Source of the DNA: Patescibacteria group bacterium | GTDB lineage: Bacteria; Patescibacteriota; Microgenomatia; Curtissbacterales; GWA2-41-24 | Length of the DNA stretch: 64,000 bases | Direction: 5' to 3' | NCBI GenBank assembly: GCA_038063735.1 | Contig: JBBTUN010000006.1 | Location: forward strand, 8,485 to 72,484 | In this document: piece after piece, positions 1-29,940 of the stretch | Layout of the letters: each line of letters begins with the position of its first letter | Numbering within the stretch: the first letter of the stretch is position 1 | Notes under the pieces: generated by a model | The model's database searches: none | Told to the model about the DNA's origin: nothing | The model's input: only the letters and a program-made list of their open reading frames with translations | Made by a program: the position numbers and the translations under genes

Positions 1-551
1 TTTAAATATAGCGGAATAAATCTGTGCATCTCTCCATACAGTTTTATATTTTTTATTACTTCCGATCTATATGCTTTAAGAGTACATCCATAATCATGCA
101 GTTTAACTCCAGTAACTTTCGAAATCATAATATTAGCAAATTTACTTGGAATTAACCTCGAAAGCAGATTGTCCTTTCTGTTTTTCCGCCATCCAGACAC
201 AACGTCGTATCCCTTGTTTACCCTATCGAATAATAAGCAAATGTCTGCAGGATCGTTTTGCAAATCGCTATCTATAGTAACGATTACTTTGCCGGAAGCA
301 TACTCAAAACCCGCCATTAAGGCAGCTGTTTGGCCAAAATTCCTCGCGAATTCGATAACTTTTACTGATCTGTTTCTTCGCGATAATTCTAAGAGGACAT
401 CATGGCAGTTATCCGTCGAACCATCATTAACAAAAATAATTTCCCATGAAGAAGTAAATTTATTCAGCTCTAATTTCAGTTTCTGAAAAAGGACTTTTAG
501 ATTTTTTTCCTCATTATAAACAGGCGAAATTACAGAGAGTTTTATTGGCAT
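1..551 (-). CDS. Family 2 glycosyltransferase, polyprenyl-phosphate sugar synthase-like (GtrB/Ppm1/ArnC type). The C-terminus runs off the window edge.
   Basis: The minus-strand translation starts MPIKLSVISPVYNEE, then DGSTD and a TIDSDLQNDP (DxD-type) motif typical of GT2 dolichyl-phosphate sugar synthases. The plus-strand ORF 169..486 is an antisense shadow. Confidence 0.75.
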   Translation of the reverse strand, partial: MPIKLSVISPVYNEEKNLKVLFQKLKLELNKFTSSWEIIFVNDGSTDNCHDVLLELSRRNRSVKVIEFARNFGQTAALMAGFEYASGKVIVTIDSDLQNDPADICLLFDRVNKGYDVVSGWRKNRKDNLLSRLIPSKFANIMISKVTGVKLHDYGCTLKAYRSEVIKNIKLYGEMHRFIPLYL

Positions 552-664
552 ACCAATATAAATTACGTCAAGAATTTACTTCTGTTTAGCAAAAATGCCC
601 AAATTAGTCTATAGGCAATATCAATATAATGATTTCCTTAAGATCTTTTTGATAAACTAACAGA

Positions 665-4888: not shown

Positions 4889-4926
4889 ATGACATAAACG
4901 TGCCTCTTATATGCTTTTAAATTTCA

Positions 4927-5391
4927 TCAAGGAGCTGAGCAACTTGCTGCAGCCAAAATTTCAATGGCAGAACCTTGACTTGATCTCCAGCACCAAAATC
5001 CGGTAGCACCAGTTGGGTCACCTAGAGATGCATACATTGCAACCTCAGAAGGACCACCTCCAGTTCCACATCCCGTTGCGTTTCCAGAAGTTATATAGTC
5101 GTACGCAATACCACCCACGTTTGTTGGTAATTGCTTCAAGTAACCTTGCTGAGTTAACACTGGTAATGAAAGTGGGTAACAACCAGCACCTGGAGTTGTG
5201 AAAAATCCCTGGACCTCTGTGACTACAGCACCAATATCATTCTTCCTCTTGGCGTCTTGTGCTTGTCTTTGTCTTTTCCCAGGATTGATAGCAATAAGTA
5301 CTGCTGCAGCTAAAATACCAATAATGGCAATAACTATAAGAAGCTCGATAAGGGTGAAACCCTTGAGTCTTTTTTGGGCAGATTTAATCAT
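4927..5391 (-). CDS. Type IV pilin / pseudopilin (prepilin-type N-terminal cleavage/methylation domain).
   Basis: The N-terminus reads KGFTLIELLIVIAIIGILAA, a class III signal with a conserved Glu at +5. Confidence 0.85.
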   Translation of the reverse strand: MIKSAQKRLKGFTLIELLIVIAIIGILAAAVLIAINPGKRQRQAQDAKRKNDIGAVVTEVQGFFTTPGAGCYPLSLPVLTQQGYLKQLPTNVGGIAYDYITSGNATGCGTGGGPSEVAMYASLGDPTGATGFWCWRSSQGSAIEILAAASCSAP

Positions 5392-5482
5392 AATTTTTTG
5401 GTTTCACCTCCTCTCGGACAATAAAATTTGTCTATGTATCCAGTATTAACGCAAACTAATTTTTTGTCAACATTCATTTTTA

Positions 5483-6688
5483 TCAAAATTGGGCTGTAAG
5501 GTTATAAATAGGCATGATAATAGAAAGCACCAAGACACCAACACTTGCACCCAGCACGACTAATATAATCGGCTCAAGAGCCGTAGTTAGGTTTCTTACC
5601 ATGTTTTCGCTTTCCTGCTCAAAATAAAGGGCAAGCCGCCCCAAAACCTCATCCATTTTCCCTGTTTCCTCGCCAACACGAATCATTTGGGCAATAATCG
5701 GCGGAAAAACCGGATTGGCCGCAAGAGGTACATGCAGTGGGGAACCCCTTTCTACTCTTGTCATAGCATTGTCTATCCCATCACGGTAAGTGGAATTAGT
5801 TAATATGTCCCGAACCACACGCAGCGCCGTAATAATTGGTATTCCTGTGCCAATCAAAAGACCCAGAGTCCTTGTAAACTCTGCCAAAATTAAAGTTTTT
5901 CGCATCTTGCCCCAAACAGGTAAATTTAAAACTACTTTGGAAATCAAATCGGCGCCTTGTGGAGTTTTTGCAAAAGTCCTGAAAGCAAATGTGGCGCCGC
6001 CAATTACAATAATAATAAGCCACCAAAAACCTCTCATAAAGTTAGACACTCCTATGAGTATTCTGGTTATTAGAGGGAGTTGAGTCCCCATTTCTGTATA
6101 AAGACTGGTTAATTTGGGGATAACAAAAATCATCATCATAGTCATCACTACAACCATCACAAATACAACGATTACAGGGTAGATAAACGCACCCTTAGTT
6201 TTAGACTTGAATTCTCTTTCTTTTTCCAAAGATTCCGCCAGCTTTCCAAGCACCTTGTCCAGAACACCGCCTGTCTCACCAGCCTCAATCAATTTTATGT
6301 ATACAACCGTAAAAACCTTAGGATGCGTCGCCATTGCCTGAGAAAGAGAAAGTCCTCCTTCAACATCGGTAACTACTTGCGACAACACTTTTGCAAAAGT
6401 GCCACTTTTGGTCTGCCTTTGCAAAATCATCAAGGAATCCGTAATAGGTAACCCCGCAGAAACCATGGTAGAAAGCTGCCGTGTGAATCCAACTAGTTCT
6501 CCGTAAGAAACACCGCCTCCAAAAGAAAATCCACTTACGAGGCTCTTGCCCCCTTTTTTTCTAACATCAATGGGGGTCAGCTTTTCTTGCTGGAGAATCT
6601 TGATGAGTGAAGCCTCGTCTATCGATTCAACTTCCCCGGAGACTGCCTTTCCTTCTGCATCTTTTGCTAAATATTTATATAAAGACAT
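5483..6688 (-). CDS. pilC: Type IV pilus assembly platform protein PilC (GspF family).
   Basis: 401 aa with duplicated GspF-type domains and 3 TM segments. It sits between the pilin and pilT. Confidence 0.85.
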   Translation of the reverse strand: MSLYKYLAKDAEGKAVSGEVESIDEASLIKILQQEKLTPIDVRKKGGKSLVSGFSFGGGVSYGELVGFTRQLSTMVSAGLPITDSLMILQRQTKSGTFAKVLSQVVTDVEGGLSLSQAMATHPKVFTVVYIKLIEAGETGGVLDKVLGKLAESLEKEREFKSKTKGAFIYPVIVVFVMVVVMTMMMIFVIPKLTSLYTEMGTQLPLITRILIGVSNFMRGFWWLIIIVIGGATFAFRTFAKTPQGADLISKVVLNLPVWGKMRKTLILAEFTRTLGLLIGTGIPIITALRVVRDILTNSTYRDGIDNAMTRVERGSPLHVPLAANPVFPPIIAQMIRVGEETGKMDEVLGRLALYFEQESENMVRNLTTALEPIILVVLGASVGVLVLSIIMPIYNLTAQF

Positions 6689-6707
6689 TTTTTAACTACT
6701 TTGTATT

Positions 6708-7802
6708 TCACTTCTCTTTGTCTTGCACAATCCTGCTTTCAATTAGCCGCTCAAGCTCTTTTGGTCTTAAACTGTACCTTTTGGCAGTATCAATAGAAAT
6801 TTTTCCGGCCCTAACCAAATAGGCAAGCGAGGCGTCAAAAAGCACCATGCCACTTTCTCCGGACGTTTGAATAATATTATCGATTTGGTGAGTTTTTCCG
6901 TCACGAACCGCGGTTTGCACGGCATTAGATGAAAGGAGAATCTCGCAAGCAGGTATCCTGCCCCCACCGATAACTGGAACCAAACGGATAGAAATTATTC
7001 CGGCAATTGTCGCCGCTAGTTGCATTCTAACTTGTGCTTGCTGGTTCTCCGGGAAAACGTCAATAATACGGTCAATAGATTGCGCAGCGCTGTTGGTGTG
7101 CAGCGTTGCAAACACCAAATGCCCGGTTTCGGCAACCGTTATAGCGGAAGCAATCGTTTCAAAATCTCTCATCTCACCAACCAATACAACATCTGGGTCT
7201 TCCCGCAGAGCGCTCCGCAGAGCAACATCCCACGAGTGCGTATCCAAGTGCATTTCCCGCTGGGAAACTAACGCCTTTCCCTTTGGATACACATATTCAA
7301 TAGGGTCCTCAATCGTCAATATATGCAGTGGTTGGTTCATATTAATTTCATTGATAACAGAAGCAATAGCCGTAGACTTTCCGTGCCCGGTAGGACCCGT
7401 AACCAAAATGAAACCTTGTCTCATGGCCGCAAAATTGTGCAGAATTCTTGGCAGGGACAATTCTTCAATAGTCTTAATATAATTTGGAATAAGCCTGAGA
7501 GCTGCCGAGATATACCCCTTTTCAAAGTAGGCATTAACCCTGAACCTGGCAACTTCTCCAAGAGCAAACGAGAAATCAATTTCTTTATTAACTGTAAACA
7601 TTTCCCGCTGCTCGGTAGAAAGAAGTTCAAAAACTAAACTTTCCGCTTCATCCGGCGACAGGGAACTGGACGTTAACGGTATTAACTGCCCATCGATCCT
7701 AATCATTGGAGGATGACCGGTAACCAAATGCAAATCCGATGCTTCTTTCTTTACCGTTATTTCTAAAAATTCCTGTATACCCATAAAATCAGTCAGGGTC
7801 AA
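6708..7802 (-). CDS. pilT: Twitching-motility retraction ATPase PilT. The real start is probably the ATG at 7784.
   Basis: Walker A GPTGHGKST and Asp/His boxes. Length is about 358 aa. The ORF-finder start is a TTG; an in-frame ATG (MGIQEF) lies 6 codons downstream. Confidence 0.85.
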   Translation of the reverse strand: MTLTDFMGIQEFLEITVKKEASDLHLVTGHPPMIRIDGQLIPLTSSSLSPDEAESLVFELLSTEQREMFTVNKEIDFSFALGEVARFRVNAYFEKGYISAALRLIPNYIKTIEELSLPRILHNFAAMRQGFILVTGPTGHGKSTAIASVINEINMNQPLHILTIEDPIEYVYPKGKALVSQREMHLDTHSWDVALRSALREDPDVVLVGEMRDFETIASAITVAETGHLVFATLHTNSAAQSIDRIIDVFPENQQAQVRMQLAATIAGIISIRLVPVIGGGRIPACEILLSSNAVQTAVRDGKTHQIDNIIQTSGESGMVLFDASLAYLVRAGKISIDTAKRYSLRPKELERLIESRIVQDKEK

Positions 7803-7852: not shown

Positions 7853-9619
7853 TTATTCCTGCGCGACCCTTAGTACCTCCTCTATTGTAGTTGTACCTTC
7901 TATCACTTTTAAATAACCATCTTGCTTCATAGTTATCATACCATCAGAAACTGCCTGGTTTTCCAAAGTTTGAGCTGTTTCACGAACAAGTATCAGTCTC
8001 GATATTTTCTCCGTAATCAGGAGCATTTCATAAATTCCTATTCTGCCCTGATAGCCGGTATTGTTACAATCCGGACAACCACGGCCGGCAAACAGCGTAA
8101 TTTTATTTTTTTCAAAGTCATATAGATTCCCTAAAACTTTCTTTAGCTCAGTAAGAACCTCACCGCTTACATCTTTCTGAAAGCGGCAAGTAGAGCAAAT
8201 TTTCCTAACAACACGCTGACCCACAACGCAGGTAACTGTAGAAGCGATCAAATACGGTTCGGCATGCATATCCAAAAGTCTTGGCAAAGCACCCGCCGAA
8301 CTATTAGTGTGAAGTGTAGAAAACACCAAATGTCCGGTCAAAGACGCCTGAATTGCAAGGTCTGCGGTTTCCGCGTCCCGAACCTCACCGACCATGATGA
8401 TGTTTGGGTCCTGACGCAAAAAAGACCTTAAACCGGAAGCAAACGTTAAACCTGCCTGCGTATTAACCTGCACCTGGTTTACACCGGCAATTTGATATTC
8501 GATAGGGTCCTCCAAAGTCACAATGTTAACGGCAGTCGAATTAAGCTTAGATAAAATAGAGTAGAGTGTCGTTGTCTTTCCGGATCCTGTTGGCCCGGTT
8601 ATCAAGATGATTCCATGCGGCCTGGCAATCGAATCCTGTAAGTTCGAAAGCGCCTTTCCCCTCAAACCCAATTCCGGCAATGTAGGCACACCTCCGGATT
8701 TCTTGAGAAGCCTCATAACGATCTTTTCCCCAAAGGCTGTCGGCAAAGTCGAAAGCCTTAAATCAAGATCTTCCTGGCCAATTTTAAAGTTAAACCTGGC
8801 GTCTTGCGGAATTCTTTTCTCGTCGATCTTCATGTTCCCCAGGATTTTTATCCTGGAAATTACCGCATCATGTATTTTGCGAGGTAAAACAAGTTTCTCC
8901 TGCAAAATTCCGTCTATTCGGTAACGAACCCTCGATTCGTTCTCCAGAGGCTCAATATGAATGTCCGATGCTTTTATCTTGATACCATATTCAAGTACCG
9001 TAGAAACGATCCTGGCAACCGGCGCTTCGCCTAAAACCGTTGTTGCGTCAAATTGTTGAACCTGTGTTTTTGATCCGCCCGCCGCATCCTTTAAAGCTTC
9101 TGTTACTTCCGAAGAAAGCCCCCTGTTGTACTGGTCTGCGATCGCGCGGTTAATAGAATCTGCCGTTGCCAAAAATGGCCTTACGGACAAACTGCTTTTT
9201 TTCTCCAAAAATTCAATAGTTTGCAAGTCTAATGGATCAACCATTGCCACAGACAAGGTGTCAACATCCTTGGAGATCGGTATTACCGTAAATCTCTTTG
9301 CAACATCTTCGGGTACAAAGTTTAAAAGTTCCGGAGAAAGCGGTTGAGTATCTGGCCTCGCGTAACCAACACCCATGACTATCGCCTTAGTCTGGGCTAT
9401 TTGTTCGGTAGACACCCAATTCATCTGCGCAATAATGGTTTCGGAAGTTTGTTGCCTTCTTTTTGACTCGTTTTTAACAAAGCTGACTTGCTCGGTAGTT
9501 AGAAGTCCTTTATCATGAAGTACGTCTTCTAAATAAGAAACTTTTTTGGTCTCATGTGGTTTAGTTTGCGCGATTTGGGCAGTACTGTTCATGCGATCAA
9601 TATACAAACACAGTGGCAA
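7853..9619 (-). CDS. pilB: Type IV pilus assembly ATPase PilB (GspE family).
   Basis: 588 aa with an N-terminal GspII domain, Walker A GPTGSGKTTT and a C-terminal tetracysteine motif CxxC...CPDC. Confidence 0.85.
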   Translation of the reverse strand: MPLCLYIDRMNSTAQIAQTKPHETKKVSYLEDVLHDKGLLTTEQVSFVKNESKRRQQTSETIIAQMNWVSTEQIAQTKAIVMGVGYARPDTQPLSPELLNFVPEDVAKRFTVIPISKDVDTLSVAMVDPLDLQTIEFLEKKSSLSVRPFLATADSINRAIADQYNRGLSSEVTEALKDAAGGSKTQVQQFDATTVLGEAPVARIVSTVLEYGIKIKASDIHIEPLENESRVRYRIDGILQEKLVLPRKIHDAVISRIKILGNMKIDEKRIPQDARFNFKIGQEDLDLRLSTLPTAFGEKIVMRLLKKSGGVPTLPELGLRGKALSNLQDSIARPHGIILITGPTGSGKTTTLYSILSKLNSTAVNIVTLEDPIEYQIAGVNQVQVNTQAGLTFASGLRSFLRQDPNIIMVGEVRDAETADLAIQASLTGHLVFSTLHTNSSAGALPRLLDMHAEPYLIASTVTCVVGQRVVRKICSTCRFQKDVSGEVLTELKKVLGNLYDFEKNKITLFAGRGCPDCNNTGYQGRIGIYEMLLITEKISRLILVRETAQTLENQAVSDGMITMKQDGYLKVIEGTTTIEEVLRVAQE

Positions 9620-9656
9620 GCGAATTCGCTGCCATATTTAAATAATAGCAAACTAG

Positions 9657-10343
9657 GTGTATAAAATGGAAATAAGCAAAATGGCAAAGAATAAAACAAC
9701 CAGAAAAAGCTTCCAAAGCTATTTAATTCTCACGAGTCTCAAAAGCTTCGATAAAGAATTAAATTCTTTGCTTACAAGCCTAGGTATTCAATCTAAAAAC
9801 GATCTGGATACAAAACTTATCGAACCTCAAAAAAACTCAATATCCATAGCGCAAATCCGAGAAATAAATAAAGATATCTACCAAAAACCTGTGATTTTGC
9901 CCTTAAAAGTCATCATCATAAAACAAGCTGACCTGCTTACCCCCGAAGCTCAAAATGCGCTGTTAAAAATATATGAAGAGCCACCGACCCACGCCATTAT
10001 TATTTTGCTAGCAACAGACACGAGACACCTGCTTCAAACTCTCTTGTCTCGGGCAGTTATTATCAAAAATCCAAATGACGAAGCGAGGGAAAAAGTAAGC
10101 AGCTTTTTAGAAACAAGCCCCATTGAATCCCTAAGGGAACTGGAGGGCATTCAAAATCCGAAGGAATGGCTAAACGAACAGATTACAGCAACATATTCAT
10201 TGCTTGTCGCAAGAATAAAAGCAGGCAAAGACACCAAAAGCATTTTGCAAACGCTCGTATTGTGCTCAAAGGCAAAAATTGCGCTTGACGCCAACGTTAA
10301 CCCTAAATTCACCCTTGCCAACCTGATACTTAACTCCACATAA
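9657..10343 (+). CDS. holB: DNA polymerase III delta-prime subunit-like (HolB, short form).
   Basis: Contains the IIIKQADLLTPEAQNALLKIYEEPP box (LLKTLEEPP-like) and LSRAVII (an SRC-like box). There is no Walker A motif, as expected for delta-prime. Confidence 0.6.
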   Translation: MYKMEISKMAKNKTTRKSFQSYLILTSLKSFDKELNSLLTSLGIQSKNDLDTKLIEPQKNSISIAQIREINKDIYQKPVILPLKVIIIKQADLLTPEAQNALLKIYEEPPTHAIIILLATDTRHLLQTLLSRAVIIKNPNDEAREKVSSFLETSPIESLRELEGIQNPKEWLNEQITATYSLLVARIKAGKDTKSILQTLVLCSKAKIALDANVNPKFTLANLILNST

Positions 10344-10429
10344 ATTGTCGAAACACGACCCTCAACCACAGCCTCAAAATAGCTTGCACAGCCTATTTAT
10401 CTCTGTTAGAATTAAACGAATGGTTTTGA

Positions 10430-12403
<1,974 letters not shown>

Positions 12404-15838: not shown

Positions 15839-16915
15839 GTGACAAAAAATGAAACTATGAACGCAAAACTAATTTTAGAAGACGGAACTATTTTCCAAGG
15901 CGAAGCACGAGGCTATAAAAGTTCCACAAGCGGAGAAGTAGTTTTTACAACTGGTATGGTTGGCTACGATCTTTCATTAACAGATCCTTCATTTAGAGGA
16001 CAAATTTTAACCTTTACCTATCCGCTTATCGGCAATTGGGGTGTTCCGCCAAAAAAATTCTGGGAATCAGAAAAAATTCACACAAAAGGGATAATTATCG
16101 GTGACCTGACAGACAAACCGGACCATTGGCAAAGCGAAAAAACCTTGGAGCAGTGGCTTATCGAGAATAAAGTGCCGACGATCGTAAACATCGATACTCG
16201 CGCGCTTACTCAAAAACTAAGAGACCACGGAGTAATGCTTGGGAAAATTGTCGTTGATGGTAAAGATATTGAATTTGACGACCCCAACAGAAGAAACTTA
16301 GTTGCGGAAGTATCACTAGCAAAGGTTAGGGTCCATAACCCAAATGGTAAAGGACCAAAGATAGCGCTACTTAACTGCGGTGCAAAAAGAAACATAGTCA
16401 ACTGCCTAACCAAAAGAGGCGCAACGGTTTACGAACTTCCCTGGAACTATGACCCGTTTGCAAATAACTTAAAATTTGATGGTCTTGTAATTTCCAATGG
16501 CCCCGGAGACCCAAAGATGGCCACAGACACTATTAATATAATAAGGAAGGCTCTTGATAAGAAATTACCTACATTCGGAATATGCCTAGGGAATCAGTTG
16601 CTAGCGCTAGCCGCAGGAGGCGATACTTATAAATTAAAATTTGGCCACAGATCGCAAAATCAGCCAACACTTCAAGTTGGAACAAAAAGGTGTTATATCA
16701 CAACTCAAAACCACGGTTATGCGGTTAATGAGAAAAAGTTACCAAAAGGCTTTAAGCCTTGGTTTATAAACGCTAACGACAATACAAATGAAGGAATAAT
16801 CCACGAAAAACTACCGTTTTTTTCCGTCCAATTCCACCCCGAAGCAGCCCCCGGACCTACAGATACCGAATTTTTATTCGACTTTTTCCTAAATAAAGTG
16901 AAAAAAAACAAATGA
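15839..16915 (+). CDS. carA: Carbamoyl-phosphate synthase small (glutaminase) subunit.
   Basis: 358 aa with a typical CarA N-terminus and a class I glutamine amidotransferase C-terminus (GICLGNQLL with the catalytic Cys). Confidence 0.9.
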   Translation: MTKNETMNAKLILEDGTIFQGEARGYKSSTSGEVVFTTGMVGYDLSLTDPSFRGQILTFTYPLIGNWGVPPKKFWESEKIHTKGIIIGDLTDKPDHWQSEKTLEQWLIENKVPTIVNIDTRALTQKLRDHGVMLGKIVVDGKDIEFDDPNRRNLVAEVSLAKVRVHNPNGKGPKIALLNCGAKRNIVNCLTKRGATVYELPWNYDPFANNLKFDGLVISNGPGDPKMATDTINIIRKALDKKLPTFGICLGNQLLALAAGGDTYKLKFGHRSQNQPTLQVGTKRCYITTQNHGYAVNEKKLPKGFKPWFINANDNTNEGIIHEKLPFFSVQFHPEAAPGPTDTEFLFDFFLNKVKKNK

Positions 16916-19900
16916 AAATTTTACTACTCGGCTCAGGCGCCCTAAAAATTGGCCAGGCCGGAGAATTCGACTATTCCGGTTCCCAGGCAATAAAAGCCCT
17001 CAAAGAAGAAGGCCACGAAGTTCTTTTAATTAATCCCAACATAGCTACCATTCAAACCTCCCAGGGTTTTGCCGACAAAGTTTTTTTCCTACCGGTAGAA
17101 CCTTACTTTGTTGCAAAAATAATTGAAGATGAAAAACCGGATGCTATTCTTCTTTCTTTTGGTGGACAAACTGCCCTAAACTGTGGCCTGGAACTTGCAA
17201 AAAAAGGTCTATTTAAAAAGTACAACGTAAAAGTCCTTGGAACAGGAGTAGATGCTATCGAAACCACAGAAGACAGGGAACTGTTTGTAAAATCCCTTAA
17301 CAAAATAGGCGCGCGTACCCCCAACAGCTTTGCCGCCAAAAACCTACAGGAAGCAAAAACTTACGCCCAAAAAATTGGCTATCCCGTTATGATCAGAAGC
17401 GCTTTTTCCCTGGGAGGTCAGGATTCGGGTATCGCCGCAAATCCAAAAGACCTAAAGGAAATTGTCTCCCGCTCTTTGTCTAAAGTAAAACAAGTCTTAA
17501 TAGAAGAATATTTACTAAATTGGAAAGAAATTGAATACGAGATAGTAAGAGACAAAAACGACAATTGCATAACCGTTTGCAACATGGAAAACATTGACCC
17601 TATGGGCATTCACACCGGAGAGTCCATTGTAGTCGCCCCATCCCAAACCTTAAATAACTACGAGTATCACACCCTCAGGGAAATAGCTATCAATGTAATA
17701 CGACACCTCGGCGTAGTAGGTGAGTGTAATATCCAATTCGCATTGAATCCAAACCCGCAAATGTCAACAGGACCCGCGCTGGATTATCGCATCATCGAAG
17801 TCAACGCCCGCCTCTCCAGGTCATCTGCGTTAGCATCAAAGGCAACCGGCTATCCTCTTGCCTACGTTGCAACAAAACTGGCACTCGGTTACTCGCTTAC
17901 AGAAATAAAAAATTCGGTAACGCAAAAAACTATCGCGTGCTTTGAGCCTGCTCTTGATTATCTGATTGTAAAATTTCCAAGATGGGATCTAACTAAATTT
18001 GTAAAAAGCAACCACCTTATCGGTTCATCGATGCAATCGGTAGGGGAAGTAATGGCAATAGGTCGTAAATTCGAAGAAGCAATTCAAAAAGCGGCCCGAA
18101 TGTTAGACCTTGGACTGGAAGGGATAACCGACGACAACATTCCAAATGCAGATTATAAAGAACCAACCCCCTGGAGACTCTTTAAAATTGCCCAAAAAAT
18201 CAAAGACGGCCAGCCAATAGAAAAAATAGCCGGGGCAACAGGCATAAATAAATTTTTCTTAGAAAAAATAAAAAATATCACAGATGCCGAAAATAATCTC
18301 AAAAATAAAAAAACCTTAACTCGCGAAAAGTTACTAAATTTAAAACAACTTGGATTTTCAGATAAACGCATTTCAACGCTATTAGACTCAACAAACCAAA
18401 AGGTCAAATCGTTAAGAGACAAATACAAAATCGCACCCGTAACAAAACAAATAGATACGCTTGCCGCTGAATACCCCGCACAAACAAACTATCTTTATCT
18501 CACATACAACGGCACAAAAGACGACATCGATTCAAACTCCAAATCACAAACTTCAAATACCAAACAATATCAAAATCAAAAACTTCAAACACCAAACAGA
18601 TCTAAAGAAGCTGATTTTGGAAATTGGAAATTGGAAATTGGAAATTCTGGCAAAGTCCTTATTTTGGGCTCCGGCCCATACCGGATCGGCTCATCAGTCG
18701 AATTCGATTGGTGTTCCGTAACTTCTGCTATAAGTGCAAAAGAAAATGGCTTCCTGCCTATTGTTATTAACTGTAATCCCGAGACCGTATCAACAGATTT
18801 TGATATGGCCGAAAGGTTATATTTTGAAGAGCTATCCGAAGAAACCGTACTGGAAATTTACAAAAAAGAAAATCCGCTTGGGGTCATTGTTTCAATGGGA
18901 GGCCAAAAACCAAATAACCTCACACCATATTTAGCCAGAGCCGGTGTAAACATTTTAGGTACAAGCCCCGCCTCAATAGACAACGCAGAAGACAGAGACA
19001 AGTTTTCAAAACTCTGCGACGATTTAGAGATTAGTCAACCACCTTGGGCAAAATTAAAAAGCACAGAAGACGCATTAAAATTTGCAAACTCGATTAAATA
19101 TCCTGTTTTAGTACGGCCCTCCTACGTACTTTCCGGGGCTGCAATGAATGTTGCATTCAACGCCCAAGACCTAAGCGAGTACTTAAGTCTTGCCAGTAAC
19201 GTTTCAAAAGAACACCCTGTGGTAATTTCCAAATTTATTCAAAACGCAAAAGAATTAGAAATAGATGCGGTGGCGTCCGGCGGCAATATCATTTGTCAGG
19301 CAATTTCCGAACACGTAGAAAATGCCGGTGTTCATTCCGGTGATTCTACACTCGTTCTCCCTGCCCAAAAACTATATATTCAAACCGTAAAAAAGGTTAA
19401 GGAAACTGCTGCCAAAATCGCCAAAAGCCTAAATATTTCCGGCCCGTTTAACATTCAATTTCTGGCGATCGACAACGAAATTATGGTTATAGAATGCAAT
19501 CTAAGGGCAAGCAGAAGTCTTCCGTTTGTCTCAAAAGTCTTAGGAACAAATTACGCGAAACTTGCAACCCAAGCTATATTGGGCTTGAATCCAAAACCAA
19601 TAAATAAAAAACTGCCAACCACTTATGTGGCAGTCAAAGCTCCTCAATTTTCATTTTCCAGAATCAAAGGCGCAGACCCCGTTCTTAGAGTAGAAATGTC
19701 TTCAACCGGAGAAGTAGCCTGCTTCGGGGATGACACAAGCGAAGCATTTCTGAAATCAATTATCGCAACAGGAACAACTTTACCCAAAAAAGCTGTCTTC
19801 ATTTCTTTAGCAGGAGACGAAAACAAAGCCAAGTTCTTGGACAGTGCCAAAACCCTAAATACCATAGGGCTAAAAATTTATGCCACAGCCGGCACCACAG

Positions 19901-20202
19901 CTTTTTTCAAAAAAAACGGGGTAGAGGCAACCATGCTATATAAAATTTATGAAAAGAAAAAGCCGAACGTTTTAAACGTGTTGCATTCTAAAAAAGTTGA
20001 CCTGGTAATTAATATCTTTGACCCATACTTTAAAAAAGAGTTCGATGATGACTACCAAATTCGAAGAACAACCATTGACTACGCAATTCCGCTACTCACC
20101 AATATGCAAACGGCCGAACTTTTCGTCCAAAGTATCAAAGAAAAAAAACTCAGTGATTTAAAAACTAAACCCTGGCAATCATACGTCAAATTTCAGAATT
20201 AA
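16912..20202 (+). CDS. carB: Carbamoyl-phosphate synthase large subunit.
   Basis: 1096 aa with two ATP-grasp halves and an MGS-like C-terminus. It carries a ~35-aa low-complexity insertion at the domain linker. Confidence 0.95.
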   Translation: MKILLLGSGALKIGQAGEFDYSGSQAIKALKEEGHEVLLINPNIATIQTSQGFADKVFFLPVEPYFVAKIIEDEKPDAILLSFGGQTALNCGLELAKKGLFKKYNVKVLGTGVDAIETTEDRELFVKSLNKIGARTPNSFAAKNLQEAKTYAQKIGYPVMIRSAFSLGGQDSGIAANPKDLKEIVSRSLSKVKQVLIEEYLLNWKEIEYEIVRDKNDNCITVCNMENIDPMGIHTGESIVVAPSQTLNNYEYHTLREIAINVIRHLGVVGECNIQFALNPNPQMSTGPALDYRIIEVNARLSRSSALASKATGYPLAYVATKLALGYSLTEIKNSVTQKTIACFEPALDYLIVKFPRWDLTKFVKSNHLIGSSMQSVGEVMAIGRKFEEAIQKAARMLDLGLEGITDDNIPNADYKEPTPWRLFKIAQKIKDGQPIEKIAGATGINKFFLEKIKNITDAENNLKNKKTLTREKLLNLKQLGFSDKRISTLLDSTNQKVKSLRDKYKIAPVTKQIDTLAAEYPAQTNYLYLTYNGTKDDIDSNSKSQTSNTKQYQNQKLQTPNRSKEADFGNWKLEIGNSGKVLILGSGPYRIGSSVEFDWCSVTSAISAKENGFLPIVINCNPETVSTDFDMAERLYFEELSEETVLEIYKKENPLGVIVSMGGQKPNNLTPYLARAGVNILGTSPASIDNAEDRDKFSKLCDDLEISQPPWAKLKSTEDALKFANSIKYPVLVRPSYVLSGAAMNVAFNAQDLSEYLSLASNVSKEHPVVISKFIQNAKELEIDAVASGGNIICQAISEHVENAGVHSGDSTLVLPAQKLYIQTVKKVKETAAKIAKSLNISGPFNIQFLAIDNEIMVIECNLRASRSLPFVSKVLGTNYAKLATQAILGLNPKPINKKLPTTYVAVKAPQFSFSRIKGADPVLRVEMSSTGEVACFGDDTSEAFLKSIIATGTTLPKKAVFISLAGDENKAKFLDSAKTLNTIGLKIYATAGTTAFFKKNGVEATMLYKIYEKKKPNVLNVLHSKKVDLVINIFDPYFKKEFDDDYQIRRTTIDYAIPLLTNMQTAELFVQSIKEKKLSDLKTKPWQSYVKFQN
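18619..18646 (+). repeat. (GGAAATT) x4 tandem repeat inside the carB linker insertion.
   Basis: ggaaattggaaattggaaattggaaatt encodes GNWKLEIGN. Upstream are CAAA-rich low-complexity codons (KSQTSNTKQYQNQKLQTPN). Confidence 0.7.
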
Positions 20203-22476: not shown

Positions 22477-23193
22477 ATGTCAACCCCAAAATACAAACGA
22501 GTTCTCCTTAAACTTTCCGGTGAAACATTTCAAGGCAGTCGAGAATTCGGAATTGATCCGCAATTTTGCCAATGGATTTCAAAAGAAATTGTCAAAGCAA
22601 AGGAAAGTGGCACCCAAATTGCAGTAGTTGTTGGCGGCGGAAACATCTTCAGAGGAACTTCTGCCGAAGAAAATGGCCTTGAGCGGACCGTCGGTGATTA
22701 TATCGGCATGCTGGCAACAATCATGAACTCGCTTGCCCTACAAGCTGCCCTGGAAAAAGAAAACCAGCCGGCTAGAGTTCTTTCCGCAATAGACATCAAA
22801 GACGTCTGCGAACCATATATAAGAAGAAGGGCCATAAGGCATATGGAAAAGGGGAGGGTTGTAATATTTGCAGGGGGAACAGGCAACCCTTACTTCACCA
22901 CAGATACAACTGCAGCACTGCGCGCGCTGGAAACCAAATGCGAAATAATCTTAAAGGCAACTAAAGTCGATGGTGTCTACGACAAAGATCCGCTTAAAAA
23001 TAAAGACGCCATTAAGTTTGAAAAGATTGGTTTCAAAGAAGCACTCAACAGCAAAGAAATCGAAGTTCTGGACAACAGCGCATTGTCACTTTGCATGGAC
23101 CATAAAATTCCCATTTTGGTCTTTGACGTTAATTTGCAGGGCAATATCCACAAAGCAGTTTCAGGTGAACTTGTCGGCACCCTCATCTCCTGA
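22477..23193 (+). CDS. pyrH: UMP kinase.
   Basis: 238 aa. VLLKLSGE and VVGGGNIFRG motifs of the amino-acid-kinase-fold UMP kinase. Confidence 0.9.
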   Translation: MSTPKYKRVLLKLSGETFQGSREFGIDPQFCQWISKEIVKAKESGTQIAVVVGGGNIFRGTSAEENGLERTVGDYIGMLATIMNSLALQAALEKENQPARVLSAIDIKDVCEPYIRRRAIRHMEKGRVVIFAGGTGNPYFTTDTTAALRALETKCEIILKATKVDGVYDKDPLKNKDAIKFEKIGFKEALNSKEIEVLDNSALSLCMDHKIPILVFDVNLQGNIHKAVSGELVGTLIS

Positions 23194-25437: not shown

Positions 25438-26046
25438 TCACTTCCCTTTGTTACTCGCCTTACCCCTTGTACTTTTCTCGCCTTTGGCCCCTTTGTCTCT
25501 TTTGCCCCTCTTGATAACTCCCTTCTGTTTCTCCGTCAACCTCTCCATGTTAGATATTTTTAAATAGTGACATATTGCAACTGCCAGCGCATCTGCCGCA
25601 TCATCTATATATCCGCTTTTGGGCTTTACCAACTTTCTTTTACCCAGATATCTCATTACGTGCTTTTGTATTTCTTTTTTGTCCGACCTTCCACTTCCCG
25701 TTATCGTCGCCTTTACATGTAGCCCTTGATATTCGAATATTGGTATCCTATAGCCCGCAGCAGCCGACAACACTACTCCCCTCGCCTGCCCAACTGTCAT
25801 TGCAGTCCTGGAGTTAACTCCAAAAAACAACTGTTCGATAGATACACAATCAGGTTTATAATATCCTAATAATCTTTTTATATCTTTATGGATACTATAT
25901 AACCTCATTGGCATTTCCATATCCTTTGATGTTACGATACAATCATAATCTATAAGTTCAATCAGTTTGTTGGAATCTTTGTCGTGGATTTTTATTACCC
26001 CATAGCCAGTGGTCGCAGTTCCCGGATCTATGCCGAAAATTATCAT
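25438..26046 (-). CDS. ruvC: Holliday junction resolvase RuvC with a lysine-rich C-terminal tail.
   Basis: MIIFGIDPGTATTGYGVI start, catalytic D/E/D/D positions and a C-terminal KRGKRDKGAKGEK tail. Confidence 0.85.
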   Translation of the reverse strand: MIIFGIDPGTATTGYGVIKIHDKDSNKLIELIDYDCIVTSKDMEMPMRLYSIHKDIKRLLGYYKPDCVSIEQLFFGVNSRTAMTVGQARGVVLSAAAGYRIPIFEYQGLHVKATITGSGRSDKKEIQKHVMRYLGKRKLVKPKSGYIDDAADALAVAICHYLKISNMERLTEKQKGVIKRGKRDKGAKGEKSTRGKASNKGK

Positions 26047-26786
26047 TTTCCCTCTCTAGGTTTCGGCCCGTCATACTCTATTTCATCATCCACTAACCTT
26101 CTCACCGGTTTCTCGCGTGTGGCTTCTTCCACAACATGGGCAACAAGCCCCGGGGTTCTGGCGATGATAAATATTCCTTTGCCTACTTTAGGGTTAAAAT
26201 CCATTTCCAAAAGAAGCGCCGCAATTATTCCATCAATATTAAGAGGTAACGCCTTCCCGCCTCCAGAAAGTTCAGTCTCTAACTTTTGGGCAAACTTTAC
26301 ATACTTTCCAAAAAATCCCAAATCTTTGGCTATTTCAACAAGTGCTTGAGTCCTGGGATCCACACTGTAAACCCTGTGACCAAAACCGCTTAACCTTTCC
26401 CCTCGTTTAGAAAATTCCCCAACCACCTCAGCTGGCACACGCCCGACATATGCCTCAAAATTCTCCATCGCCTTTTCCACCGCTCCACCATGGAATTCAC
26501 CAAATGCCAATATTCCGGCAGCAACCGCTGCCTGCACCGGCGATCCTCCGGAATAAACATTCCGGGCAGCAACAACGGAAGAGGGCGCCACACCATGATC
26601 GATAGAAATTGTCAGTATTGCGTCCAGCATTCTTTCGCTATTTTTGTCCGGTAATTTTCCTTGAAGTATTAAATAAATTGTCCTTGTAAACGAGGGCGAT
26701 TGAGCAAGTTTCGTAAGGTCATAACCATAAACATACGGTTTCCCGTCCTTGTGGGTCGATATAGAAGTTCTGTATGCCTTACCCAT
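26043..26786 (-). CDS. Short citrate-synthase-family protein (citryl-CoA lyase-like).
   Basis: 247 aa containing GFGHRVYSVDPR, the citrate synthase active-site signature. It is too short for a full citrate synthase and matches the size of citryl-CoA lyase / the ACL C-terminal domain. Confidence 0.65.
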   Translation of the reverse strand: MGKAYRTSISTHKDGKPYVYGYDLTKLAQSPSFTRTIYLILQGKLPDKNSERMLDAILTISIDHGVAPSSVVAARNVYSGGSPVQAAVAAGILAFGEFHGGAVEKAMENFEAYVGRVPAEVVGEFSKRGERLSGFGHRVYSVDPRTQALVEIAKDLGFFGKYVKFAQKLETELSGGGKALPLNIDGIIAALLLEMDFNPKVGKGIFIIARTPGLVAHVVEEATREKPVRRLVDDEIEYDGPKPREGK

Positions 26787-26825
26787 TAGCGTATAGTATA
26801 ACTTAAAACAAAATTAATCTTAAAT

Positions 26826-27716
26826 TTAGATAGCATTTTTAATTAGCTTAGGTATATCCTCAAAGTTTTCAGCTACTATTACACCACTTTCTTTTAAAAA
26901 CTTGTTCTTTTCATCCATTGAAAATTCCAAACCTACTATTGCACCCGCATGACCAAGAGCAGTGTCCTTAGGTAAACTTTCCGCAAACTTGCCTGCCAAA
27001 AATATTATCAAAGGCTTTGTAAACTTTTTTTCGCGAACTAACTTTGCTGCCTCTATTTCGCTACTCCCCCCAACTTCTCCAAATGCCACAACAGCTTTTG
27101 TCTGCGCGTCATGTTCAAAATCCAAAAGTAGATCTACAAAAGTTGTTCCAACTAGTAAATCTCCCCCAATACCCACAACAGTAGATTGCCCCAGCCCTGC
27201 ACTTGTTATCATCGACCCTAACTCCGAACACATACCGCCGGATTTGGAAATCACTCCGACAGGCCCTTTACTAAAGGTGATTTTGGCATTCGGTCCGCCG
27301 ATAGAACCAATTTTTCCTTCTCCCGGAGAAATTGCCCCGACCGAATTTGGACCCAAAACCCGAACTCCCGCCTTGCGTGCACGATATAAAATTTTGGCTG
27401 TATCCAAAACCGGAACTTTCTCCGCAAACATATGAACCAGTGAAATTCCAACGTCAATTGCCTCAAGCGCCGCATCCAGTGTCAGTAGTGGCGGTACATT
27501 TACCATAGTCGCGTCAATTGGTCCCACAGCACTAACTGCTTCTTTGACCGAATCAAAAACCGGTAACCCCAAAACCTCCTGGCCGCCTTTTCCTGGGGTT
27601 ACCCCACCAACAACTTTCATACCGTAGTCAAGTAGGTCAACACACGCCGAAAGGCCTGATTTTCCCGTAATCCCCTGGATTAAAACTTTGGTATCTCTAT
27701 TTACTAATATCGCCAT
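26826..27716 (-). CDS. Succinyl-CoA synthetase alpha-like CoA-binding subunit (citryl-CoA synthetase small-subunit-like).
   Basis: 296 aa. CoA-binding Rossmann N-terminus and an ALGHAGAIVG phospho-His loop. Confidence 0.75.
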   Translation of the reverse strand: MAILVNRDTKVLIQGITGKSGLSACVDLLDYGMKVVGGVTPGKGGQEVLGLPVFDSVKEAVSAVGPIDATMVNVPPLLTLDAALEAIDVGISLVHMFAEKVPVLDTAKILYRARKAGVRVLGPNSVGAISPGEGKIGSIGGPNAKITFSKGPVGVISKSGGMCSELGSMITSAGLGQSTVVGIGGDLLVGTTFVDLLLDFEHDAQTKAVVAFGEVGGSSEIEAAKLVREKKFTKPLIIFLAGKFAESLPKDTALGHAGAIVGLEFSMDEKNKFLKESGVIVAENFEDIPKLIKNAI

Positions 27717-27749
27717 TTTTGTTAAGTTCTCGACTTCGCTCGAACAATA

Positions 27750-29090
27750 TTATTCGACCTTGTGGAGAATTTCGTTACTTTTTTCATTTGCCATTTGAGA
27801 TTTGAATTCTTTGGAAAGCTCCACCATTTTTTTACATGCAACAGAAATTGGTGTTTCCGGTCCAAATAAATGGAAATCATAACCCTCTTTTTTGGCAAGT
27901 TTCTTAAGCATTTCGTAAGCTTCCTTTTGTTTTGGCCCGCCTCGTCTTACAACAATTGGGTAACTTGGTCTCGGTTTCACCTCCGCAAGTCCCTGGGCAA
28001 AACCGGCCAAAGTTTCATAAATATCCGTAAAATTAGCAACAGCCCCGGCAACCAAACATCCAGCCAGTCCTTCTTTTGATAATGTTATTTTTGTCAGCTT
28101 CTCGACTTTTTCGCGTGGTGGGTTACCAGAATATTCCGTGTAATTGGAAGGTTTCCCGCCATTTGCAACCAAAGCATCCATAACCAAAAGCGATGCCCCG
28201 CCTCCGGAAGCCAAAACCGCAATGTCTCCACCAAATTCGATAAATGTCGAACCGGCATTTCCCCTGTAATCTTCCACGTCTATTTTTTTTGCCGCCAGTT
28301 CCCTTTTTGTTGGCACAGCTCCCGCTGCACCTTTCGGCAAAACATCTAAATCCCTATGACGCGCCATTCCTGCGTCATCCAAAATTATTTTGGCATCGAC
28401 AGCAATGTAACTTTCACCAACCTTAGCAATCGGGTTAACCTCAACCAACCTGCAATCGTATCGACTAAACGCATCCCACAACCTCATCAAAAAATCAATT
28501 AGATAATCGATATTGTTCGAGCGGAGTCGAGAACCACCACCACTAGACTTCTCGATTCGTCCCGCTATTTGGGACTCACTCGAAGAATAGCTTCCGGTTA
28601 ACATTTTCCTTAGAAGTTTCGGATCCGGGCCCAAAAACGGATTAATATCCACTCTTACAATTTCCTCGGGATTCTTTGCTCGAACCTCTTCAATATCCAT
28701 TCCCCCTTCTTGGGAAAATAACAAAAACGGCACTGCCAAAACCGTGTCGTATGTAATCGAAGCATAAAATTCTTTTTCAATATCCGCCTTTTCCGCCAGC
28801 GTTATAAACCGCACCTCTTCCCCCACTTGCCCTGAGCTTGCCGAAGGGTTAAAGGTTGATCCGAACATTTTTTTACAGAAATCAACAAGTTGCTTTTCAT
28901 TTGTACAAACCTTAATTCCGCCACCCTTACCACGCCTGCCGGAAAGAACCTGCACCTTAGCAACTATTGGAAATTTAATGCGTTTTTTTGCAGCCTGCAC
29001 TTCTTCTAAATTCTCACAAACCACAAAAAACGGGCTCTCGACTCCAACTTTATTTAAAATTTTATGCCCCTCAAATTCGTATAATTTCAT
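27750..29090 (-). CDS. Succinyl-CoA synthetase beta-like ATP-grasp subunit (citryl-CoA synthetase large-subunit-like).
   Basis: 446 aa. The N-terminus MKLYEFEGHKIL...VAKVQVLSGRRGKGGGIKV is an ATP-grasp, and GGDIAVLASGGGASLLVMD is the ligase-CoA domain. Confidence 0.75.
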   Translation of the reverse strand: MKLYEFEGHKILNKVGVESPFFVVCENLEEVQAAKKRIKFPIVAKVQVLSGRRGKGGGIKVCTNEKQLVDFCKKMFGSTFNPSASSGQVGEEVRFITLAEKADIEKEFYASITYDTVLAVPFLLFSQEGGMDIEEVRAKNPEEIVRVDINPFLGPDPKLLRKMLTGSYSSSESQIAGRIEKSSGGGSRLRSNNIDYLIDFLMRLWDAFSRYDCRLVEVNPIAKVGESYIAVDAKIILDDAGMARHRDLDVLPKGAAGAVPTKRELAAKKIDVEDYRGNAGSTFIEFGGDIAVLASGGGASLLVMDALVANGGKPSNYTEYSGNPPREKVEKLTKITLSKEGLAGCLVAGAVANFTDIYETLAGFAQGLAEVKPRPSYPIVVRRGGPKQKEAYEMLKKLAKKEGYDFHLFGPETPISVACKKMVELSKEFKSQMANEKSNEILHKVE

Positions 29091-29111
29091 AAACTAATGT
29101 AAAATTTTAGC

Positions 29112-29537
29112 ATGGATGTTTCAAAAGCAACAGAAGCGGATATCAACGCAATTTTAAAGTTGCAGACTCAAATATATCGAACCGAAAAAATTGCAGACGG
29201 TGCCAAAGCCGCTTTGGCAAAACAACTTAAGGACGATACTTGCGATGTACTTGTTGCCAAGACAAACGATCAAGTCATGGCCACAGCGGTGCTCTATTAT
29301 GTGGCCGTTGCCATCCGAAACAGCCACTATGCCCTGCTCGAAGGCCTGGTTGTCGATAAGTCACAAAGGGGCAAAGGCGTAGGTACAGAATTTTTCAAAA
29401 AATGTATAGAAACCGCCAAAGAAAAAGGCTGTTACAAAATAATCTTTACTTCAGGTTCAGACAGAACAGATGCCCATAAATTCTACGAAAAAAATGGCTT
29501 TGTCAAATGGGGCCTTGAGTTTCGAATGGATTTGTAA
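29112..29537 (+). CDS. GNAT family N-acetyltransferase.
   Basis: 141 aa with QRGKGVGTEF, the acetyl-CoA binding motif A of GNATs. Confidence 0.8.
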   Translation: MDVSKATEADINAILKLQTQIYRTEKIADGAKAALAKQLKDDTCDVLVAKTNDQVMATAVLYYVAVAIRNSHYALLEGLVVDKSQRGKGVGTEFFKKCIETAKEKGCYKIIFTSGSDRTDAHKFYEKNGFVKWGLEFRMDL

Positions 29538-29940
29538 AGTCTAATGGCTCACCATTTTCATCTACTGGATTGTCTAAAAAATCTTTAATTTTTCGTAGGT
29601 CTTCACGAAAAAACACATTTACTTCCGAATTCTTACCATGTCGTATTTTTTTGTTAGCCACCCCAATTTCAGTCATAAAGGATGCAACTCCATCAAAAGC
29701 GTCCCTCCTATTTCCCGAAACTGGCAACCTAAAGCCCAAAGTAAAATACGCTTCTCTAAAATGCGCAACCACAGCTTTAGTTCGCTCATAACTGTTATAA
29801 CTCATACGATCAAGAACACCCTGTTTTTGTCTCCAATCGGCACCCAATGTACGCCAAACCTCTGCTACATACTTTCCAGATCTTTCTTTTGCGCATTCTA
29901 CATATACTTCTCGAGACATGCGAGGCTCAAGTCTTACCAT
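29503..29940 (-). CDS. Hypothetical protein, probably co-transcribed with yebC.
   Basis: 145-aa non-repetitive ORF that starts at the stop of yebC. The opposite-strand ORF 29638..29982 looks spurious. Confidence 0.4.
   Translation of the reverse strand: MVRLEPRMSREVYVECAKERSGKYVAEVWRTLGADWRQKQGVLDRMSYNSYERTKAVVAHFREAYFTLGFRLPVSGNRRDAFDGVASFMTEIGVANKKIRHGKNSEVNVFFREDLRKIKDFLDNPVDENGEPLDFTNPFETQGPI

Follow-up and report, generated by a model that had tools for sequence, protein, structure and literature searches.

The locus and its three genes

The stretch of DNA analyzed here, referred to as the window, comprises 64,000 nt of contig JBBTUN010000006.1 (positions 8,485 to 72,484; assembly GCA_038063735.1) of a Patescibacterium close to Curtissbacteria, a contig that stems from the 0.1-µm fraction of Hainich groundwater. 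Its subject is a cluster of three genes encoding a putative ATP-dependent citrate cleavage system; all coordinates are those of the window unless a related locus is named. The first gene of the cluster (27750-29090, minus strand) is a 446-aa open reading frame (ORF) with ATP-grasp and citrate-binding domains and encodes the candidate large (beta) subunit of a citryl-coenzyme A (citryl-CoA) synthetase (CCS), similar to CcsA and AclB. It is followed on the same strand, after a spacer of 33 nt, by a 296-aa ORF for a CoA-binding phosphohistidine (alpha) subunit with a GHAGA histidine loop (26826-27716) and, after a further 39 nt, by a 247-aa ORF for a putative citryl-CoA lyase (CCL; 26043-26786). 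The stop codon of the alpha gene is located at 26826-26828 and the lyase gene starts at 26786, so the two are separate ORFs. An earlier examination of the letters alone (the sequence-only reading) had described three consecutive minus-strand genes of these sizes at 26043-29090, which agrees with the ORF coordinates.

The order of the beta, alpha and lyase genes is collinear with aclB-aclA, as in Chlorobium limicola (6hxj), and is thus the domain order of ATP-citrate lyase (ACL) that the sequence-only reading had recognized. Chlorobium AclA, in contrast, fuses the alpha and lyase parts, which are divided by a stop codon and the 39-nt spacer in the window. The sequence-only reading had also likened sizes and order to the two-step system of Hydrogenobacter thermophilus (CcsA/CcsB and Ccl; 6hxq, 6hxp). 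This likeness holds for the three separate polypeptides, which have the same domain content in both organisms, but not for the alpha protein, whose 296 aa are the size of SucD; CcsB measures 353 aa in PDB entry 6hxq_A and 329 aa in an Aquificae-type locus (L022). The three genes are contiguous in the window, whereas the ccl contigs of one Aquificales metagenome-assembled genome lack ccsAB. Chance is not an issue for any of the three assignments, since the best matches of the beta, alpha and lyase proteins to solved structures reach 5e-55, 1e-74 and 8e-64, respectively. Judged by sequence, the cluster appears to be a split ATP-citrate cleavage system of the CCS/CCL type that belongs to a large clade from the candidate phyla radiation (CPR) and DPANN and is already annotated as such.

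The large subunit

Since the beta subunit is where the organic acid binds in this superfamily, it was given more weight in assigning the substrate. The 446-aa protein consists of an ATP-grasp_2 domain (Pfam PF08442, 1.3e-44) followed by Citrate_bind (PF16114, 89 bits; cutoff 26.8). Its best match in the PDB is Hydrogenobacter CcsA (6hxq_B, 5e-55), ahead of AclB (1.4e-40) and of the beta subunits of succinyl-CoA synthetase (SCS; 4e-32 or weaker), and it stays below both NCBI cutoffs for SucC (204 vs 370 and 191 vs 376 bits). A look at the ACL-specific active-site residues, as suggested by the sequence-only reading, finds the citrate site of human ACLY (3mwd_A) retained: EYSG, ANFT and RRGGP of the 446-aa protein align with G309, N346/F347/T348 and R379, which we take, partly after Sun et al. 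2010, to be the residues in contact with citrate. The G, N, T and R at these positions are invariant among 38 diverse relatives of the protein, whereas E. coli SucC (sequence from the annotated genome) carries GGIV and RLEGN there. A role of ACLY F347 has been described (PMC10115795). The protein shares EYSG.P, ANFT and RRGGP with Chlorobium AclB; Aquificae CcsA proteins, which form a different clade, have DIGGNP and A(N/S)NT in place of its EYSGNP and ANFT. A low-complexity insertion, SSSESQIAGRIEKSSGGGSRLRSNN, is located between the ATP-grasp and citrate-binding domains at approximately residues 165-195 (window 28505-28600) and is found neither in Hydrogenobacter CcsA nor in Chlorobium AclB. 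The length of close homologues ranges from 373 to 471 aa.

The family of the beta subunit was delineated by a search of 1.84 billion cluster representatives, which yielded 205 at E <= 1e-30; among the top 150, about 65 show AN.T where the citrate site aligns. In a neighbor-joining (distance-based) tree of 130 sequences with 200 bootstraps, no SucC-type protein falls into the smallest clade uniting the window protein with Hydrogenobacter CcsA and Chlorobium AclB in 197 of 200 replicates. This looser criterion was adopted because a few taxa at the edges shift and break the exact clades: the exact 67-member clade of ACL and CCS proteins is recovered in 18/200 replicates and the exact 57-member clade around the window protein in 22/200. 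The window protein is found inside this 57-member clade, apart from the clades of Aquificae CcsA and of AclB (each 200/200), and its clade pairs with AclB rather than with Aquificae CcsA in 158 of 200 bootstraps. The phylogeny that the sequence-only reading had called for thus groups the beta subunit with CcsA and AclB, away from SucC. Together with the missed SucC cutoffs and CcsA as best PDB match, this removes the possibility that the protein is a bona fide SucC, which would have spoken against a citrate cleavage system.

The lyase

The 247-aa protein matches only the C-terminal half of the Pfam family Citrate_synt and contains GFGHRVYSVDPR, the motif already reported for it. It passes the NCBIfam model for citryl-CoA lyase (NF004869; 284 bits, cutoff 212) and aligns from residue 3 to 245 with residues 3 to 251 of Hydrogenobacter CCL (6hxp_A, 8e-64). 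Identity amounts to 46% with this lyase over the full length, to 30% with the C-terminal module of ACL (Chlorobium AclA) and to 31% with E. coli citrate synthase. H99, H137 and D185 align with H264, H305 and D362 of E. coli GltA (mature-protein numbering), and H64, R145 and R210 with its H229, R314 and R387; the former three correspond to the catalytic residues and the latter three to the oxaloacetate ligands of citrate synthase. At the first catalytic position, within the motif G-x-x-[H/F]-GGA, the window lyase has His like the stand-alone lyase of Hydrogenobacter, where ACL modules have Phe.

Since the protein passes NF004869, matches CCL over its full length and keeps the catalytic and oxaloacetate residues, it is by sequence an intact lyase; it represents the catalytic core of citrate synthase minus the N-terminal and inserted segments of that enzyme. 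The sequence-only reading that the cluster does not encode SCS plus a full-length citrate synthase is borne out by the missed SucC and SucD cutoffs and by the passed CCL model. A truncated or pseudogenised citrate synthase was also considered for the 247-aa protein and is ruled out by the catalytic residues, the full-length match to CCL and an identity of 69-86% across species.

The CoA-binding subunit and points of doubt

The 296-aa protein is the ambiguous member of the cluster. It comprises the Pfam domains CoA_binding (PF02629) and Ligase_CoA (PF00549) and has the phosphohistidine loop LGHAGAIVG; the longer string ALGHAGAIVG cited in the sequence-only reading is found in it as well. The two-subunit design and the superfamily are those of SucCD (E. 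coli, Thermus, Aeropyrum 2yv2), and the alpha protein equals the SCS alpha subunits in length and in its phosphohistidine loop. Unlike SucCD, the window genes are partnered with a lyase gene and not with genes of the tricarboxylic acid (TCA) cycle, the beta protein has a C-terminal domain of the citrate-binding type, and the alpha protein, which carries insertions, scores below both SucD cutoffs (276 vs 353 and 274 vs 336 bits). It was aligned with three SCS alpha subunits only (E. coli, Thermus, Aeropyrum), the Aquificae-type CcsB of L022 and a fused single-chain ACL (P0336). Two insertions, one of 4 residues after IG.IGG (GGPNAKITF) and one of 3 residues before GHAGA, are common to the window protein, CcsB and the fused ACL. 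SKSGGM(CSE) takes the place of SRSGTL in SCS alphas, SGG(M/L) being common to CcsB and the fused ACL. Both insertions and the SGG motif are absent from the three SCS alphas. The C-terminal extension of CcsB (329-353 aa) is missing from the window protein, which is more SucD-like in this respect.

Several findings weigh against reading the cluster as a citrate cleavage system. Overall similarity places the 296-aa protein nearer to SCS alpha than to CcsB: an SCS alpha subunit is its top match among PDB entries (1e-74, compared with 1e-51 for CcsB), it scores 255 bits with Aeropyrum SCS alpha and 179 bits with CcsB 6hxq_A, and its identity is 44-45% to SCS alphas and 41% to Aquificae-type CcsB. 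Because the PDB ranking favors SCS alpha, its assignment to CCS/ACL is based on the insertions and motifs only. The view that it is CcsB rather than SucD is therefore upheld in part, by the shared insertions and motifs, and not by overall similarity. The beta protein is located outside the Aquificae CcsA clade that holds the assayed Hydrogenobacter enzyme, and is approximately 38% identical to the Aquificae CcsA cluster representative, which ranks about 88th among the representatives matched (E = 1.3e-39). In two related loci (L017, L020), beta and alpha genes are present with no lyase gene within 6-8 kb. In sum, the three proteins are of mixed affinity, with an ACL-like beta subunit, a CCL-like lyase and a SucD-like alpha subunit.

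An alternative explanation is that an ordinary SCS stands beside a decaying, truncated citrate synthase, both being leftovers of a lost TCA cycle. The PDB ranking of the alpha protein would fit, as would the labels succinyl-CoA synthetase or citrate synthase that several databases give to relatives. Yet the beta protein fails the SucC cutoffs, carries ANFT and RRGGP where SucC has GGIV and RLEGN and never groups with SucC-type proteins, and the 247-aa protein matches a solved CCL in length and architecture, retains all catalytic residues and is 69-86% conserved. The explanation is already contradicted by these data and is given hardly any weight.

Distribution and synteny

The nearest relatives of the 446-aa protein are found in Curtissbacteria and Woykebacteria (60-76% identity). 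A scan of species-representative genomes provided 11 loci of the Curtissbacteria type (L001-L011), and all of them share the order CcsA-like gene, alpha gene, lyase gene, ruvC and membrane protein gene. Identities across the 11 loci are 59-72% for beta, 68-81% for alpha and 69-86% for the lyase. The same three-gene order is found in distant bacterial loci with Patescibacteria-like gene contexts (L019, L025, L026, L027) and in an archaeal locus (L021) that is flanked by genes for NAC, Sec61-beta and Rpb6 and whose closest named relatives are Woesearchaeota. The alpha and lyase genes are unfused in all related loci. With a profile of 38 diverse beta members, the clusters retrieved at E <= 1e-20 number more than 7,000, and named members of the beta family come from Woesearchaeota, Magasanikbacteria, Daviesbacteria and Woykebacteria.

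Many of the relatives are already named 'citryl-CoA lyase' or 'citryl-CoA synthetase large subunit' by NCBI and JGI; others are labelled as succinyl-CoA synthetase, citrate synthase or members of the acetate-CoA ligase family. According to a 2022 preprint (bioRxiv 10.1101/2022.10.25.513756), sequences from CPR and DPANN that carry an SCS or citrate synthase annotation are monophyletic with CCS or CCL, Nanohaloarchaea carry CCS and CCL as their only enzymes of the reductive TCA (rTCA) cycle, and an rTCA cycle shared between host and symbiont is proposed. The phenomenon is the same as the one described here; the available text of the preprint devotes one sentence to CPR and contains nothing on a three-gene operon, ACL-like beta motifs, a SucD-like alpha subunit or acyltransferase neighbors. 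A literature search on citryl-CoA in CPR, Patescibacteria, Microgenomates, Curtissbacteria, OP11, OD1 and DPANN found the Curtissbacteria operon in no paper and CCS/CCL of CPR in one preprint. The phrase 'metabolically unexpected', used in the sequence-only reading, was thus too strong for a cluster that is widespread in CPR and DPANN, already named by NCBI and JGI and mentioned in that preprint.

Some loci depart from the plain three-gene arrangement. Small genes are found inside or beside the cluster in four Curtissbacteria loci (L002 6613-7020; L005 3943-4464 and 5847-6062; L006 7435-7920; L011 7391-7828). Two encode 23S-rRNA-intervening-sequence proteins, located between beta and alpha in L002 and immediately ahead of the beta gene in L005; the others encode a GIY-YIG nuclease, a Trp-repressor-like helix-turn-helix protein and an unassigned 161-aa ORF. 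All have the appearance of mobile or selfish elements tolerated by the operon. An association with HAD-family hydrolases recurs among relatives: the CcsA-like subunit is fused to one in proteins of 561-566 aa (P0246, encoded in L027 at 6001-7686, and P0419), and a HAD gene separates beta and alpha in L020 (7227-7973). In L017, a threonine-dehydratase-like gene (PALP and Thr_dehydrat_C; 9237-10487) lies between beta and alpha; a fumarase/aspartase-class lyase and a glutamate dehydrogenase are encoded nearby, with no citryl-CoA lyase gene within 8 kb.

Proposed function

We consider it somewhat better than an even bet that the cluster performs a stand-alone, two-enzyme ATP-dependent citrate cleavage and serves as a source of acetyl-CoA and oxaloacetate. 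The 446-aa and 296-aa subunits would together form a citryl-CoA synthetase that converts citrate, ATP and CoA to citryl-CoA, ADP and Pi via a phosphohistidine intermediate on the GHAGA loop of the 296-aa subunit, and the 247-aa lyase would split citryl-CoA into acetyl-CoA and oxaloacetate. The net result would be the ACL reaction, carried out by unfused parts whose gene order is the ACL domain order. Citrate would be taken up from the host or the environment and the module would work alone, outside any cycle, with acetyl-CoA passing to acetyltransferases and oxaloacetate entering the route to aspartate. The sequences establish gene structure, domain content, conserved active sites, family placement and synteny; substrate and complex formation are inferred, and the physiological direction and role are the most tentative elements of this proposal.

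Citrate-cycle genes have been reported as lacking in Patescibacteria (PMC7137472). No other TCA enzyme was found by Pfam among the large ORFs of the window or within 10 kb beyond each of its ends, a region of about 84 kb that corresponds to under a tenth of the roughly 1-Mb genome. The remaining enzymes of an oxidative cycle, whose presence would according to the sequence-only reading have counted against citrate cleavage, are thus not encoded in these 84 kb. With no other TCA enzyme there, and with Patescibacteria reported as devoid of a citrate cycle, stand-alone citrate cleavage is the simplest reading. Weighing against it, aconitase, isocitrate dehydrogenase, a citrate transporter and other sources of acetyl-CoA could be encoded elsewhere in the genome.

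The same inventory bears on the question of whether the cluster is part of a working rTCA cycle that fixes CO2. In Aquificae, CCS and CCL carry out the citrate-cleaving step of this cycle, and one relative of the cluster (L026) is located near a 2-oxoacid:ferredoxin oxidoreductase. Hydrogenobacter is an autotroph, however, and the window host appears to be a TCA-less, symbiont-type organism: no further enzyme of the cycle is found in the 84 kb, the lineage is reported to have no citrate cycle, and a genome of about 1 Mb whose gene content is of the symbiont type makes an unpromising autotroph. CO2 fixation by this route is accordingly very improbable.

The ACL reaction is near equilibrium, and sequence therefore cannot fix its direction, which is a further point against cleavage. 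The main rival to citrate cleavage is the reverse reaction, in which the lyase would condense acetyl-CoA and oxaloacetate and the synthetase would release citrate with the formation of ATP. Such a system would be an energy-conserving replacement of citrate synthase, its citrate entering a short oxidative branch that ends in 2-oxoglutarate and glutamate, or it would add substrate-level phosphorylation. Besides the near-equilibrium, this direction would suit the lack of a canonical citrate synthase in the 84 kb inspected and the position of the beta and alpha genes of L017 near the glutamate dehydrogenase and fumarase/aspartase-class lyase genes. Also counted in its favor is Desulfobacter postgatei, which is said to use ACL in the direction of citrate synthesis (work attributed to Moller, Schauder, Fuchs and Thauer, 1987). 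Citrate synthesis would, on the other hand, require a stoichiometric supply of oxaloacetate and a sink for citrate in a lineage reported to lack the citrate cycle (PMC7137472) and in a region of 84 kb without aconitase or isocitrate dehydrogenase. Excretion of citrate would not be redox-balanced for a fermenter, and the acyltransferases that adjoin the cluster fit production of acetyl-CoA better. The reverse direction is therefore regarded as unlikely, though as the most serious of the alternatives.

These acyltransferases begin with the immediate neighbor of the window cluster, a GNAT acetyltransferase gene (29112-29537, plus strand; Pfam Acetyltransf_1) that is divergent from the large-subunit gene, the two start codons being 21 nt apart. 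Of the 11 Curtissbacteria-type loci, 9 have a GNAT gene at this position. Elsewhere, the cluster adjoins genes for Hexapep proteins (L019, L006), a GNAT protein (L027) and MBOAT and Antibiotic_NAT proteins (L025), and the hexapeptide-repeat enzyme genes of L019 and L006 overlap the first cluster gene by 4 nt. Three or four unrelated acyltransferase families in separate lineages are thus found beside the cluster. This pattern is suggestive of a supply of acetyl-CoA, and the GNAT protein is, by association only, a possible consumer of acetyl-CoA that is linked to the cluster. To the contrary, the adjacency could be coincidental, as such genes are common and the whole Curtissbacteria neighborhood is syntenic. 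In L025, the cluster is located amid genes for acyl-carrier proteins, a phosphopantetheinyl transferase, a ketoreductase, a MaoC dehydratase, an FkbH-like protein and an MBOAT O-acyltransferase (1-5889 and 9130-10608); these surroundings may constitute an acyl-modification pathway fed by the cluster.

Under a further alternative, the substrate would be a related acid instead of citrate, e.g. 2-methylcitrate, to be converted to propionyl-CoA and oxaloacetate, or another tri- or dicarboxylic hydroxy-acid. The window clade stands apart from both groups with assayed members, Aquificae CcsA and Chlorobi AclB, and the citrate-synthase family includes 2-methylcitrate synthases, which are seen among the weaker matches of the lyase. 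Contrary to this idea, all citrate-contacting residues of ACLY that were checked are conserved in the 446-aa protein, with G, N, T and R invariant in the family, and the lyase, at 46% identity to the CCL assayed from Hydrogenobacter, passes the CCL model but not the models for methylcitrate synthase. A substrate other than citrate is, in our estimate, quite improbable.

The usual picture of Patescibacteria and DPANN is that of fermenters lacking a citrate cycle, and little is known of what they obtain from their hosts. A more far-reaching interpretation, drawn from sequence comparison and considered conceivable but rather doubtful, is that the cluster represents a third, very large clade of citrate cleavage systems, mostly of CPR and DPANN, with an ACL-like beta subunit, a CCL-like lyase, a SucD-like alpha subunit and the ACL gene order. 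It would resemble an unfused precursor or a fission product of ACL and, in TCA-less symbionts, would convert imported citrate to acetyl-CoA as ACLY does in the eukaryotic cytosol. If so, citrate would be a currency of carbon transfer from host to symbiont, the conserved and widespread module would name one concrete metabolite on which Patescibacteria and DPANN may depend, and an explanation would be offered for their source of acetyl-CoA. The mixed character of the three proteins bears on the origin of ACL from CCS and CCL. Metabolic surveys often count the module wrongly, under 'succinyl-CoA synthetase' or 'citrate synthase'; a 2026 preprint on Nanobdellota counts the SCS alpha subunit and reports zero citrate synthase. 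The finding is not new in kind, and its value lies in corrected SCS and citrate synthase pathway calls and in an assayable enzyme lead on host-derived nutrients.

Genomic neighborhood

Downstream of the lyase gene, and overlapping it by 4 nt (26043-26046) as the sequence-only reading had noted, is ruvC (25438-26046, minus strand; Pfam RuvC 2e-38). Throughout L001-L011 it follows the lyase gene on the same strand, overlapping or abutting it in L001, L003, L004 and L007-L010 and lying 130-300 bp away in the other four. The ruvC gene is probably co-transcribed with the cluster without belonging to the enzyme system, and it marks the cluster as part of the core chromosome.

A scan for promoters and terminators between 24400 and 30000 gave 13 promoter-like sites, no excess over the 11.1 expected from shuffled sequence, and the operon boundaries are therefore drawn from gene spacing only. 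One weak promoter-like site within 29091-29124, TTGAAA-17-TACATT, in a scan that was overall at chance level, ends 5 nt ahead of the large-subunit ATG and would therefore yield a leaderless mRNA for this subunit. None of the three cluster genes has a clear Shine-Dalgarno sequence in front of it. Between yebC and the GNAT gene lies a 145-aa ORF without Pfam match (29503-29940, minus strand). It shares 35 nt with the 3' end of the convergent GNAT gene and, at its own start, 1 nt with the stop of yebC.

According to Pfam, the large ORFs of the window encode housekeeping functions (type IV pilus, gyrase, DnaB, SSB, release factor, proteases) and also carbamoyl-phosphate synthase. The small and large subunits of the latter are encoded at 15839-20202 (plus strand), and a gene of the amino-acid-kinase family is found at 22477-23193. 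These genes indicate some capacity for pyrimidine or arginine biosynthesis, a pathway in which aspartate derived from oxaloacetate would be a co-substrate.

Toward the end of the window, a 486-aa protein (61866-63326, minus strand) contains three cytochrome b5-like haem-binding domains (224 bits, 3 stretches). Just past the window, and separated from its end only by the gene of a cyclophilin-type peptidyl-prolyl isomerase, a flavoprotein similar to ferric reductases and NOX enzymes is encoded (L029 8013-9308; Ferric_reduct, FAD_binding_8 and NAD_binding_1). The two form an electron-transfer pair that is unexpected for a Patescibacterium. Finally, a 747-aa protein (54643-56886, plus strand) carries a spermidine-synthase-like domain at residues 303-449 only; the gene call of the source contig for it is 610 aa.

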